From positions 260,276 through 324,275 of the forward strand of contig OX044367.1 in assembly GCA_943846785.1 (NCBI GenBank): a stretch of DNA of 64,000 nt, given 5' to 3'. Shown here piece by piece: positions 18,825 to 28,457 of this stretch. How positions within the stretch are numbered: the stretch's first letter is position 1; every line of letters begins with the position of its first letter. The notes under the pieces were generated by a model that was given only the letters and a program-made list of their open reading frames with translations, was not told where the DNA came from and searched no databases. The position numbers and the translations under genes were made by a program. Origin of the DNA: an uncultured SAR86 cluster bacterium. Its GTDB lineage: Bacteria > Pseudomonadota > Gammaproteobacteria > Magnimaribacterales > D2472.

Positions 18825-20652
18825 TTATTCCACCGTAACTGACTTTGCTAGATTCCTTGGTTGATCAATATCTGTTCCTCTTAGTAAGGCGACTTCATAT
18901 GAAAGAATCTGTAGAGGAATGTTATATACAATAGGAGTTAAGAAGAAATCACATTTTGGCATATGAACAAGCTCACCAGCCTTAACATCCATTTTTACCG
19001 ATGGATCAGCAAAAACATATAGCGTGCCACCTCTTGCTTTTACTTCCTCAAGATTAGAAATTAATTTTTCAGCTATTTCGCTTTCAGGTGCCAATGCAAT
19101 AACTGGCATATTCTCATCAATAAGAGCCAGTGGTCCATGCTTTAACTCGCCTGCTGGGTATGCCTCTGCATGAATATAAGAAATCTCTTTTAAGTTTTAA
19201 GGCGCCCTCTTTTGCAATTGGATAAAAAATTCCTCTGCCTAAGAAAAGAGCATTGTCCTTGTTTGCAATACTTGGCGCTATTGCTGCGATTTGTTCTTTT
19301 TGCAGCAGTGATTCTGAAATTGTTTCTGGTAATAATCTTAGTGCATTAACAATTCTGCCTCTTAATTTGGGATTTAAGTCTTTGCTTTTGGCTAAAGAAA
19401 GAGCAAGCAACATAAGAGCAGCTAGCTGAGTGGTGAACGCTTTGGTTGAGGCAACTCCAATTTCTGGGCCAGCATTAGTAAAAAGCACAAAGTCAGACTC
19501 TCTTGCTAGTGAACTTGTTGGAACATTACAAATAGCTAGAGAAGCCAAATAATTCTTTTCTTTTGCGTAGCTCAGCGCTGCCAATGTGTCTGCAGTCTCT
19601 CCAGATTGAGAAATGGTTATGATTAATGAATCATCATCTACATGAGGGTTTCTATATCTGTATTCACTAGCGTAATCTATTTGACATGGGAGTTCAGCTA
19701 TAGATGAAAACCAATTTGCTGCTACTCTTCCAGCATGAAGGCTAGTTCCACAAGCAACAATTTGTATTCGTTTAACTTTTGCAAAAATATCGCTAGAACC
19801 TAATCCAAAAATATTATCTAAGACATCTTCTCCACCTATTCTTCCATCGATAGTATTGGATACTGCTTCAGGTTGTTCATAGATTTCTTTTTCCATAAAG
19901 TGTCTATAGTCACCTTTTGAGGTTGCTTGGTTTGAAATATCTATATGGGTTACTTCTCTGGTAACTTCTTTTTTAGAGCTATCAAAAATTTTATAAGAGT
20001 TCGCTGATATTTCTGCAACATCTCCATCTTCTAGAAAGATAAAATCGTTTGTCATTTGTGCTATAGCTAAAGGGTCAGAGGCGGCAAATATTTCATCCGT
20101 GCCAAGGCCAATTAACAAAGGCGACTTGTTTCTTGCTACAACTAAATTAGTATTATCTTTAATGTCTATAGCAGCTATTGCATAAGCTCCTTCAAGTTTT
20201 TCTTTTGCTAAATACATTGCATCGAGCATGCTGTTACCTTCATTCATATGCAGATCAAGTAAATGCGCTATAAGCTCTGAGTCGGTTTGGGATGAAAACT
20301 CATAGCCGTCGCTCATTAGGGATTCTCGCAAGTCCACATAGTTTTCAATAATGCCGTTATGAACGATATATACAGAGTCTTTTGATTTATGTGGGTGGGC
20401 ATTTATCTCTGAAGGCTCTCCATGAGTTGCCCATCTTGTATGCGCAATGCCGAGCTTACTCTTTGGCTTTTCAGCAATCATTTTATCTTCGAGAAGCTGA
20501 ACTTTACCTAATGCACGCAAGTGAGCAATTGATTCATTTTGATGCAAGGCGATTCCTGCTGAGTCATAGCCTCTATATTCCATTTTATGGAGCCCTTGAA
20601 CTAGTAATTTACCAACGTTTCTTGTTGATGCTGCAGCAATGATTCCGCACAT
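18825..20652 (-). pseudogene. glmS: glutamine--fructose-6-phosphate aminotransferase, frame broken by one extra base
   Basis: ORFs 19117..20652 (MCGIIAAAST...) and 18825..19109 (...[11 protein letters not shown]) are two frames of one GlmS. Removing one T from the run 19188..19191 restores ...[40 protein letters not shown]. Confidence 0.85.
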
Positions 20653-20654
20653 AT

Positions 20655-22011
20655 TTAATCCTTTTTCTTAGACCAATCTTTTTTATTTTCTTGTTTGGCT
20701 CTACCAAAACCAAGAGCATTATCAGGGACATCTTTTTGATAACCGAGCCTGCAGCAACTGTTGCGTTTGAACCAACAGTAACTAGGTGCAACTAATGATG
20801 AATTGCTTCCAATAAAACTTCCGTCTCCAATAACAGTTTTGTGTTTATCTTTGCCATCATAATTACAAGTTATTGTTCCAGCTCCGATGTTGGTACCTTC
20901 ACCCACTTCGGTGTCGCCAAGATAAGTAAAGTGATTTGCTTTAGATCCTTTGCCAAGAGTAGAGTTTTTCGTTTCAACAAAATTTCCAACCTTAGCTGTA
21001 TTTTCTATATTACTTCCCACTCGCAACCTTGCATAAGGACCAATAACACAATCGTCCCCAATAATTGCTTGATCGATATGTGAAAAGGCTTCGATTTTAG
21101 AATTGCTTCCAATGACAGAGTCTTTGATAATTGTATTTGGACCTATTGAAACATTGTCTCCAAGTGTAACTGTTCCCTCTAAAATTACATTGACATCTAT
21201 GGAACAATCTTTTCCAGCAGTCAACATCCCCTCTAATATCTAGTCTAGATTTATCGGATATAGTAACGCCTTGATTGAAAAGTTCCTCTGAATTCATTTT
21301 TCTATAAATGGCCTCTAGTTGTGCTAGTTCTTGTTTGCTATTTGCTCCCTTAACTTCATCGTTAGAAGCATTATATGTTTTTATTTTAATACCATTTTGG
21401 CTCAAAATTGAAACTAAATCAGTTAAATAGTATTCATTTGCTGCATTATCATTCTTAATCTCTTTCAAACCCTCTTCTATAAGATCTTTAGAACCGCATA
21501 AAACGCCAGTAAAAATTTCATTAATTTCTTTATCAGACTCCGAAGCGTCTTTCTCTTCAACTATTGCAAGAGCATGGCCACTTGCGTCTTTCTTAACTCT
21601 TCCATAGCCAAATGGGTTCTCTAAAACAGTGGTTAGGATTGAAAGGCCGCTATCTGATGATTTTATTAAATTATCTAATGTTTCTCTTCTTATGAGTGGG
21701 ACGTCTCCATATAAGACAAGAATTTTAGAAGCACTAACAGTTGACTTTAGGCCACACTTTACTGCATCACCGGTACCAATTGCCATAGGCTGCTCAGCAA
21801 TAGAGATGTTTAAAGAATAGTTTTTTGATTCTTCAATAATTGATTCTTTGTCATAACCAACTACCAAAGTAATATCTGGGCTAATAGATCCAGCAGTGGC
21901 GCATATTTTTTGTAACATAGAGCTACCCCCAACCTTTTGAAGGGCTTTAGCTCTATTTGATTTCATTCTTGAGCCTTCTCCGGCTGCAAGTATTATGGTG
22001 TGTAAGCTCAC
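20655..22011 (-). pseudogene. glmU: bifunctional UDP-N-acetylglucosamine pyrophosphorylase / glucosamine-1-phosphate acetyltransferase, three indels
   Basis: ORFs 21097..22011 and 20655..21227 join at ...RLDIRG / LTAGKDCSIDVNVILEG, with a shift within 21221..21236. A second +1 at 20783 and a -1 in the run 20733..20737 garble 17 residues; the correct frame is visible in ORF 20609..20791 (VTVGSNATVAAGSVIKK). Confidence 0.85.
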
Positions 22012-22037
22012 AGTAATTTAAATATTAAATATCTACC

Positions 22038-22451
22038 TTACTGGTTTTTACGTAGTTTTTGAATAGTTTTTAATCTTGCTACAGCTTCGGCTAGTTGAGC
22101 AGCTGCTTTAGCATAGTCTAAAGTCGCATCTTTATTGGCTAAGTCTTGTTCTGCTGATTCTTTTGCTTTAATTGCTTCGGCTTCATCTAGACTGTCTGCT
22201 CTTTCAGCAGTATCGGATAATACTGTTACAAGATCTGGTTGGATTTCTAAAAACCCACCTGAACAAAAAAATGCCTCTTCTTCAGATCCATTTTGAACCC
22301 TGACTGGCCCTGCAGCTAATCCAGTTAATAATGGCGTATGACCAGGAGCGATACCAAGCTCACCAAGAGATCCTGTTGCATAAACCATAGTGGCTTCGCC
22401 AGAATATATTTCTTCATTAGAAGAAACTATGTTGATCTTGATTGTGCTCAT
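22038..22451 (-). CDS. atpC: F0F1 ATP synthase subunit epsilon
   Basis: 137 aa in the operon position after atpD. Typical IVSSNEEIYSGEATMV...GHTPLLT. Confidence 0.9.
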   Translation of the reverse strand: MSTIKINIVSSNEEIYSGEATMVYATGSLGELGIAPGHTPLLTGLAAGPVRVQNGSEEEAFFCSGGFLEIQPDLVTVLSDTAERADSLDEAEAIKAKESAEQDLANKDATLDYAKAAAQLAEAVARLKTIQKLRKNQ

Positions 22452-22453
22452 AG

Positions 22454-26834: not shown

Positions 26835-26837
26835 TGT

Positions 26838-27309
26838 CTATAAATCCTCTGCTGCCTTCTTCAAAATATCATCATGTTTTTCTGGAGATATCTCATCTCC
26901 AAGGATTTTTTGAGTTGTATCAATAATAATCTCAGACATTTGCTGTCTTAACTCTTCTTTTGCTTTGTTGGTTTCATTCTCAATAGATGTTGATGCTGAA
27001 GTCATAATTTTTTCAGCCTCTTCTTCGGCTTTAGACGAAGCATCTCCGACAATTTGCGATGCTCTGGCATTGGCTTTCTTCAGAATTTCTGCAGCCTCTG
27101 TCTTTGGCTTGATCCATTTCTTTGTCAAAAGCTAATTTAGCTTCTTCAAGCGAATCATCTGCTTTTTTAGCAGCCTCTAGTCCATCAGATATCTTTTTTT
27201 CTCTTTCTTGCATGACTTCCAAGATAGGCGGATAGACATATTTCCAGCATATAGCTACAAATACAATCATCACGACTGCTTGGGCAAGTAAGGTTGCGTT
27301 TATATTCAT
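26838..27309 (-). pseudogene. atpF: F0F1 ATP synthase subunit b, one extra base
   Basis: ORFs 27031..27309 (MNINATLLAQAVVMIVF...) and 26838..27128 join as ...FDKEMDQAKTEAAEILKKANARASQIV if one T of the run 27103..27105 is removed. Confidence 0.85.
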
Positions 27310-27320
27310 TCTTTAAATTT

Positions 27321-27542
27321 TTACAGAGCAAATAACATATACATGCCAAGGCCTACACCAATCATAGGTACCGCATCTGTTAATCCCATCATAAGGAAGA
27401 ATCTACCCTGAAGGAAAGGAGCCAACTCAGGCTGCCTAGCTATACCTTCAATAAATTTACTACCTAAAATACCCACACCAATTCCAGCTCCAATTGCTGA
27501 AAGACCCATGGTAATTCCTGCTGCTAAAATACTATATTCCAT
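27321..27542 (-). CDS. atpE: F0F1 ATP synthase subunit c
   Basis: 73 aa hairpin proteolipid. ARQPE loop and the conserved acidic residue in [10 protein letters not shown]. Confidence 0.9.
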
Positions 27543-27565
27543 TTTTTTCTCCTTAAAGTTGAGGT

Positions 27566-28457
27566 TTAATGTTCCTCTGTTTCATGCGCCATTGCCAAAT
27601 ATGCAATGGTTAACGCCATAAATATAAATGCTTGCAGTGCCACAATTAATATGTGGAAAAGCGCCCAAACTAAATGTAGACCAAATCCAACCATGCCTAT
27701 TGGTATGCTACTAAAAAACAACATCAATGCAATTAATATAAATATCATTTCACCTGCATATAAATTTCCAAAAAGTCTTAGGCCTAATGAGATTGGCTTG
27801 GCTATAAAATTAACCATCTCTAAAATAAAATTAACAGGAATCATCCATTTTCCAAATGGATGTAATGTCAACTCTGCTACAAAAGCCTTAGGTCCTTTAA
27901 CTTTGATGCTGTAATAAATTGTTAAAACAAATATTGCCAATGCCATACCAAGTGTTATGTTTGGGTCGGTGGTTGGAACAACCTTAAAATAAAAAGACTC
28001 AGGACTGTTAATCCATGCATGTTCTGGCCACCAACAAGAAAATAAGCGAGTGGCCTGCTAGTACGGGGATAAAATCAACCGGTATTAAGTCCATTAGGTT
28101 CATCAACAATATCCAAACAAAAACAGTAAGAGCAAGTGGAGCAATAAGCTTATTTTTAACAGAGCCAAACAATGATTGCACATTATCTTCTACAAACTCT
28201 ATGCTCATTTCTACAAAGTTTTGAAGGCCGGTGGGTGTTGAATCAGCACTTACTGATTTTGGCATAGCCATTCTAAACAATAATATAAACAGTCCGCCTA
28301 AAAAAATTGACCAAAAAAGAGAGTCTACGTGAAAAGCCCAGAATCCCATTTGATCTACATAATGAGGATCGCAAGTCCATCCTTCTGGAGTTTTTCCACA
28401 AGTAAGGTTTGTTAAATGATGATCAATATATGATTTTGTAGTTAGCTCTTTTGCCAT
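27566..28457 (-). pseudogene. atpB: F0F1 ATP synthase subunit a, one +1 insertion
   Basis: ORFs 28008..28457 and 27566..27946. Removing T28025 gives ...[49 protein letters not shown] (AEH matches E. coli IAEH). [13 protein letters not shown] lies downstream. Confidence 0.85.

Follow-up and report, generated by a model that had tools for sequence, protein, structure and literature searches.

Fourteen private single-base indels in the atpB–glmS region of a SAR86 contig, probably consensus errors at sites of strain polymorphism

Broken reading frames between glmS and atpB

The window analysed in this study, a 64 kb stretch of a public contig, carries the gene order gyrB-recF-dnaN-dnaA / rnpA-yidC-mnmE-mnmG-rsmG-parAB-atpIBEFHAGDC-glmUS, which is typical of an origin region. 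On its minus strand, between 18.8 and 28.5 kb, seven genes of the ATP synthase and glmUS block (glmS, glmU, atpD, atpG, atpA, atpF and atpB) were each found in two to four open reading frame (ORF) fragments, and the origin of these broken frames is the subject of this work. The DnaA protein of the window is named SAR86 cluster bacterium by NCBI, and the organism is a SAR86-cluster gammaproteobacterium. The cumulative GC skew runs down to approximately 36 kb, up across the plus-strand dnaA-gyrB block (37–42 kb) and down again. Its minimum lies near 49–50 kb and, therefore, the skew alone does not place the origin at dnaA.

The comparison set was drawn from public metagenome contigs. Contigs in 591 blocks of the public collection encode a protein identical to the AtpC of the window. 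Ten long contigs (L081–L090) belong to the ENA series ERZ106462xx-66xx, are named contig_N or scaffold_N and reach up to 1.2 Mb. Seven of them (L081, L082, L085 and L087–L090) are approximately 99.5% identical to the window over 18.8–32.5 kb, and in L082, L085, L088, L089 and L090 the genes from atpB to glmS are all called full length. Nine further contigs (L091–L099), which were found via the GidB allele of the window, show identities of 99.6–99.9% over 20.5–41.1 kb; some of them were assembled from other samples with SPAdes (NODE_) or MEGAHIT (k141_). Altogether, the population is represented over the broken stretch by more than 20 independent metagenome contigs, approximately 99.3–99.7% identical to the window and in several cases short-read assemblies. 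A scan of genome contigs with an AtpD fragment retrieved only relatives at 87% amino acid identity or less and no close relatives. Two pattern scans of JGI metagenome contigs, using the haplotype of the window with and without the indels at 25047 and 25021, gave 0 matches.

The gene fragments were mapped using an ORF listing and tblastn with the proteins of a relative. Consecutive parts of each broken protein fell in different frames. Insertions and deletions (indels) private to the window were then called from a base-level multiple alignment to the near-identical contigs. This alignment revealed 14 private 1-bp indels, 10 insertions and 4 deletions, which are listed gene by gene in Table 1. 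A first-pass annotation made from the sequence of the window had counted thirteen. All 13 of its sites were recovered within 6 nt, and a second deletion in atpB (28050) had been missed. Its assignment of the damage to the seven genes agrees with the ORF listing and with tblastn, and the ORF listing likewise bears out that atpC, atpH, atpE and atpI are intact. The sparing of small genes does not count as a signal: for atpC, atpH and atpE together it is expected by chance with P = 0.14. The 14 indels all lie outside homopolymer runs of four or more bases; only those at 24476 and 19191 lie in A runs of 2-3 bases.

Table 1. Features of the window: the indel-bearing stretch, its genes and the neighbouring duplication.
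Feature	Coordinates	Strand	State	Basis
Anomalous stretch, 8,860 bp	19191..28050	-	14 private 1-bp indels and raised density of private, mostly synonymous substitutions	Alignment
glmS	18825..20652	-	1 indel: inserted base at 19191; 608 amino acids after repair	Pfam GATase_6/7 and SIS on the intact gene of relatives
glmU	20655..22011	-	3 indels: inserted bases at 21221 and 20783, deletion 20736/20735	ORFs, alignment
atpC (epsilon subunit)	22038..22451	-	Intact	ORF listing
atpD (beta subunit)	22454..23853	-	2 indels: inserted C at 23607 and at 23480	tblastn, alignment
atpG (gamma subunit)	23864..24728	-	1 indel: inserted A at 24476	Alignment
atpA (alpha subunit)	24742..26288	-	4 indels: inserted bases at 25791, 25652 and 25047, deletion 25021/25020	Alignment
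atpH (delta subunit)	26298..26834	-	Intact	ORF listing
atpF (b subunit)	26838..27309	-	1 indel: inserted G at 27102	Alignment
atpE (c subunit)	27321..27542	-	Intact	ORF listing
atpB (a subunit)	27566..28457	-	2 indels: 1-bp deletions 28050/28049 and 28028/28027	Alignment
atpI-like ORF	28457..28801	-	Intact, beyond the indel stretch	ORF listing; 98-amino-acid gene called here in L083
Head-to-tail tandem duplication	11296..16737		2,720-bp unit	blastn

Outside the broken interval the ORF map looks normal. Between 28.1 and 41.1 kb one private deletion and 3 private substitutions were detected. The deletion, of 1 bp at 33137, lies in the mnmG-mnmE intergenic region (TTTTTCGC-GTTTTTTT), where G is present in 8 of 8 aligned relatives. 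The region 43.8–64 kb contained 0 private indels and 7 private substitutions in comparison with seven relatives. Two small private events outside long ORFs were observed in 1–9.5 kb, namely insertions of 1 bp at 4854 and 2 bp at 4892-4893 (net +3) relative to five relatives; they may be natural variation, the relatives being only approximately 99.2% identical there. The region 41.1–43.8 kb and most of 9.5–18.8 kb were judged from the ORF list and pairwise blastn rows only, not base by base. Fourteen of the 17 private events thus lie inside 17% of the compared length (P = 8e-9). The confinement of the indels to one stretch is real, as had been claimed from the sequence alone.

Privacy of the indels and state of the underlying alleles

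The first-pass annotation had proposed a comparison with the closest genomes. In this comparison none of the 14 indels was found in any contig covering its site. They are absent from the seven close long-read-style contigs named above, from the partial contigs L084, L093 and L107 where these cover the sites, from eight SPAdes, MEGAHIT or other contigs (L091, L092 and L094–L099) and from more distant lineages.

After the 14 indels had been undone, the ten genes from glmS to atpB yielded full-length proteins without internal stops and with 0–4 amino acid differences to L082, which confirms that the fragments re-join upon single-base repair. Compared with 16 close relatives the stretch contains 20 private substitutions. 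Of the 19 coding ones, 17 are synonymous third-position changes, and in a smaller comparison set 27 of 31 private coding substitutions were synonymous. Eleven of the 20 private alleles match the sister lineages L083 and L086. Neither sequencing noise nor gene decay is expected to yield substitutions of this kind, and the pattern indicates that the underlying alleles are functional and shaped by purifying selection. The earlier statement that these genes cannot all be dead is backed by the synonymous divergence of the stretch. Pseudogene formation by genome decay was considered and rejected on the same synonymous bias; moreover, the lesions are packed in the 8.9 kb stretch instead of being spread genome-wide.

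It is highly improbable that the indels are real, whether as sites of programmed +1/-1 frameshifting or of slippage during transcription or as recent inactivating mutations of the ATP synthase and GlmS/GlmU genes. The insertions at 25047, 23607 and 23480 do create the motif CTT-AGN, which resembles the +1 site CUU-AGG-C of Ty1. This motif is restricted to 3 of the 14 sites, though, and the fourteen sites in seven genes are of mixed sign and share no motif. They are conserved in 0 of the more than 20 contigs at 99.3–99.7% identity and are equally absent from lineages at 80–94%. Scans of the 64 kb window for tRNA genes and Rfam families, performed in search of recoding support, gave no tRNA gene and no Rfam family at the gathering threshold. 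In an AT-rich genome AGA should not behave as a hungry codon. CTT-AGN was rejected as a +1 slippery site: CTTA is readable as the leucine alleles CTA and TTA kept together, and it is absent in all relatives. The 17 synonymous changes among 19 coding substitutions leave no sign of relaxed selection, and true mutations would not set both alleles of a polymorphic site side by side.

The window resembles the known systems of programmed ribosomal frameshifting (prfB +1, dnaX -1 and Ty1) in that an in-frame product needs a +1 or -1 shift and in its three CTT-AGN sites. It differs from them in the lack of conservation and of a common motif, in the many sites per operon and in the presence of both shift signs. 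Consequently, the indels do not belong to this class, and the suggestion of the first-pass annotation that the cell might read through them is not upheld: the sites are private, of mixed sign and coincide with polymorphic positions. Hardly credible at all is a SAR86 lineage which physically carries the indels and either practises multi-site +1/-1 recoding or has recently dispensed with oxidative phosphorylation and the synthesis of amino sugars and lives off its neighbours.

Coincidence of the indels with strain polymorphism

The positions of the indels were compared with single-nucleotide polymorphisms (SNPs) among the relatives. All three indels of glmU fall on SNP sites which divide the haplotype of L087 from the main haplotype. 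At 21221, where L087 and L107 carry A and the others G, both bases stand in the window as GA. At 20783, where L087 carries A and the others G, they stand as AG. At 20736, C is found in L087, L107 and L091-type contigs and T in the others, and the window is without a base. The G inserted at 27102 occurs in the neighbouring column as an allele of a close relative and of L083 and L086, and here too the window has kept both alleles next to each other. Among close relatives 1.06% of the columns are polymorphic, and 4 of the 14 indels coincide with such columns (P ~1e-5). With L083 and L086 added, 9.2% of the columns are polymorphic and 7 of the 14 indels lie on SNP columns (P ~6e-5).

The inserted bases themselves follow a pattern. 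For nine of the 10 insertions the extra base can be interpreted as a synonymous variant retained alongside the reference base (null probability 0.39, P = 0.0014), for example TTA/CTA giving CTTA (three times), AAA/AAG and GAA/GAG; the tenth is the documented G/A SNP at 21221. At both insertions in atpD the window reads T-C-TTA and the relatives T-TTA. In atpG, AAG is changed to AAAG, and the AAA allele is present in L083, L116, L118 and L120. Three of the 4 deletions take out a third codon position, and the deletion in atpA adjoins private SNPs at 25023 and 25026. For the other atp sites, the inserted base occurs as an allele in the distant SAR86 lineages L115–L120 (80–88% identity), which is weakly informative at that distance.

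The same two haplotypes are interleaved in the surrounding sequence. Between 19468 and 21643 (glmU-glmS) 29 sites distinguish L087 from the main haplotype. At these sites the window agrees with L087 in 14 cases and with the main haplotype in 13, and it changes from one to the other 14 times within 2.2 kb. Such a coin-flip mosaic is the expected outcome of an unphased majority vote when the mixture is roughly even.

These observations bear directly on the question of whether ordinary sequencing errors, as in a low-coverage patch or a gap fill from one or a few long reads whose residual errors outlasted polishing, could account for the broken genes without any strain mixture. The length of approximately 8.9 kb resembles one long read, the damage is confined to a single interval, and local error bursts occur in other contigs of the series. 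Random errors, though, should miss SNP columns with a matching alternative allele and should show no preference for synonymous-type sites, contrary to the probabilities given above. Residual long-read errors are mostly of the homopolymer-length type, according to PMC9262707 and PMC8812927, and none of the 14 indels lies in a run of four or more bases. Furthermore, the indels are not accompanied by random non-synonymous substitution errors. Ordinary errors are therefore an unlikely cause.

Very probably, the broken genes are consensus errors where reads of two or more co-occurring SAR86 strains were merged. The frameshifts would almost certainly exist only in this record, the genes being, as far as the comparison of contigs tells, intact and functional in the organism. 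The contig probably stems from a long-read, strain-collapsing metagenome assembly. Over approximately 8.9 kb, from glmS to atpB, reads of at least two strains would have piled onto one backbone. At most SNP sites the consensus would have taken one allele or the other, giving rise to the fine mosaic. Fourteen SNP sites would have been mis-resolved: at 10 both alleles were presumably kept side by side, which produces a 1-bp insertion, and at 4 neither was kept, which produces a 1-bp deletion. We infer that a consensus or polishing step is the culprit and a Flye-type long-read assembly the source. The earlier reading of a localised data-quality problem is thereby retained and narrowed to errors of the consensus at SNPs between strains, in a region where several strains were collapsed.

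Several properties of long-read assemblies agree with merged strains as the cause. Flye reportedly collapses conspecific strains into consensus contigs and merges strains approximately 98.65% identical into one consensus (PMC8302730), and indels are described as a main cause of frameshifted ORFs in such assemblies (PMC9262707; PMC8302730). Frameshift errors of long-read metagenomes and metagenome-assembled genomes (MAGs), as addressed by IDEEL-type tests, likewise consist of 1-bp indels which truncate conserved genes (PMC9262707; PMC8302730). Like these errors, the indels of the window do not occur in short-read assemblies of this population, and similar ones recur in other contigs of the series. 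Classic residual long-read errors differ in being homopolymer-length changes spread over the contig, whereas the window has 0 of 14 in runs of at least four bases and all in one 8.9 kb stretch. With strain-collapsed ('strain-oblivious') Flye or metaFlye contigs the window shares the mosaic consensus of two haplotypes; the insertions which keep both alleles are deduced here from the sequence and not from a described failure mode of these assemblers. A literature search yielded no direct citable description of SNP-to-indel consensus errors.

A related situation is found in collapsed diploid assemblies, in which consensus indels arise at heterozygous sites and are addressed by haplotype-aware polishing. 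Common to both are two alleles in the pile-up and a substitution mis-rendered as an indel. In contrast to diploid assemblies, the 'haplotypes' of the window are strains of a bacterial community.

The following points weigh against the merging of strain reads as the cause. First, at 7 of the 14 sites the partner allele occurs only in lineages at 80–88% identity, where most third positions vary, or nowhere; the direct SNP evidence thus covers half of the sites. Second, natural recombination can also make a fine mosaic of alleles. Third, the consensus step is itself deduced from sequence comparison. Fourth, other conserved genes (dnaA, gyrB and coxA) escaped such damage. Hints for the location are that the stretch adjoins a strain-variable island at 16.7–18.8 kb and that the ends of L093 and L107 (23182 and 21408) lie inside it.

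The biological weight of the broken frames is small, the genes being fine in the organism. Nevertheless, a public SAR86 contig in which seven essential genes are falsely broken and one duplication is probably false (see below) would lead to inflated pseudogene counts and lower completeness scores, and such false breaks could mislead metabolic reconstructions or searches for recoding. The combination of insertions which set a synonymous alternative allele next to the reference base, the loss of third codon positions by deletion and a coin-flip allele mosaic could serve as a signature which flags collapsed-strain consensus errors from sequence alone, without reads.

Related contigs and the adjoining variable island

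Errors of a similar kind were observed in other contigs of the ENA series. L111 (ENA ERZ10646527 contig_10011), equivalent to positions 8-699 of the window, contains 17 private 1-bp insertions in approximately 0.7 kb, which split a methyltransferase gene and a GFA-domain gene. L093 (ENA ERZ10646655 contig_14956) combines its own indels in atpA and atpG with alleles of the L083/L086 lineage and, at 25021-25031, has extra bases where the window is one base short. L107, which shares the source sample ERZ10646655 with L093, carries its own indels, and its glmS and glmU are broken. Both contigs end inside the stretch: L093 loses homology at window position 23182 and L107 begins at 21408. Split genes are also present in L086 (many), L106 (one) and L081. 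The aligned SPAdes and MEGAHIT contigs showed no private indels, and L097, another short-read-type scaffold, showed one.

The contig_N and scaffold_N names of the series appear to be Flye-style. A North Sea bloom study which reported SAR86 MAGs from PacBio HiFi reads assembled with Flye 2.8.3 --meta is a plausible but unproven origin of the series.

Two members of the series showed further peculiarities. In L093, from locus 17920 onward, the SAR86 homology ends inside atpD and is followed by phage-like genes including an SU10-type major capsid protein; this join is likely chimeric. L113 (ENA ERZ10646539 contig_7968), in which 1,897 bp are 100% identical to window positions 1011-2907, is a 24-kb contig carrying an aldo-keto reductase and glyoxalase gene pair twice, at 9620-11437 and 15570-17173. 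The repeated pair is a probable further duplication artefact of the series.

The tandem duplication of the window (Table 1) lies 2 kb from the indel stretch. Its two copies differ at 1 nt (13912 C versus 16632 T), and each unit holds three genes for a GT2-like protein of 307 amino acids, a Kdo/RIO1-like kinase and a sulfotransferase-like protein. Only one copy of the unit is present in each of L081, L082, L084, L085, L087, L088, L107, L108 and L110. Probably, the duplication is an uncollapsed overlap or a misassembly, although a genuine recent duplication within a surface-polysaccharide island is conceivable. Its position suggests a second structural assembly problem nearby; a link to the indels is unproven.

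The duplication also belongs to the evidence on deliberate or accidental editing after assembly, such as spiked-in indels or the manual merging of overlapping contigs. Absent from the relatives, it could represent an uncollapsed contig overlap, and exact look-ups of the broken GlmS (511 amino acids) and AtpA (170 amino acids) fragments found none on record in a large gene index. Pseudogene annotation would account for the absent entries just as well, however. Moreover, random spiking would not land on SNP sites with matching alleles, and editing would not carry a block of private synonymous substitutions together with a two-haplotype mosaic. The deliberate alteration which the first-pass annotation had entertained is accordingly very unlikely.

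Between the duplication and glmS, positions 16740-18824 form a strain-variable island directly downstream of glmS, and the alignments to relatives break at 18614-18824. The gene sets of this island vary among the relatives and include a cadherin-repeat protein of 385 amino acids, a MAPEG protein, restriction-like genes or TonB_C. The 385-amino-acid protein of the window was found on only 2 contigs of the whole collection; L107 carries this protein.

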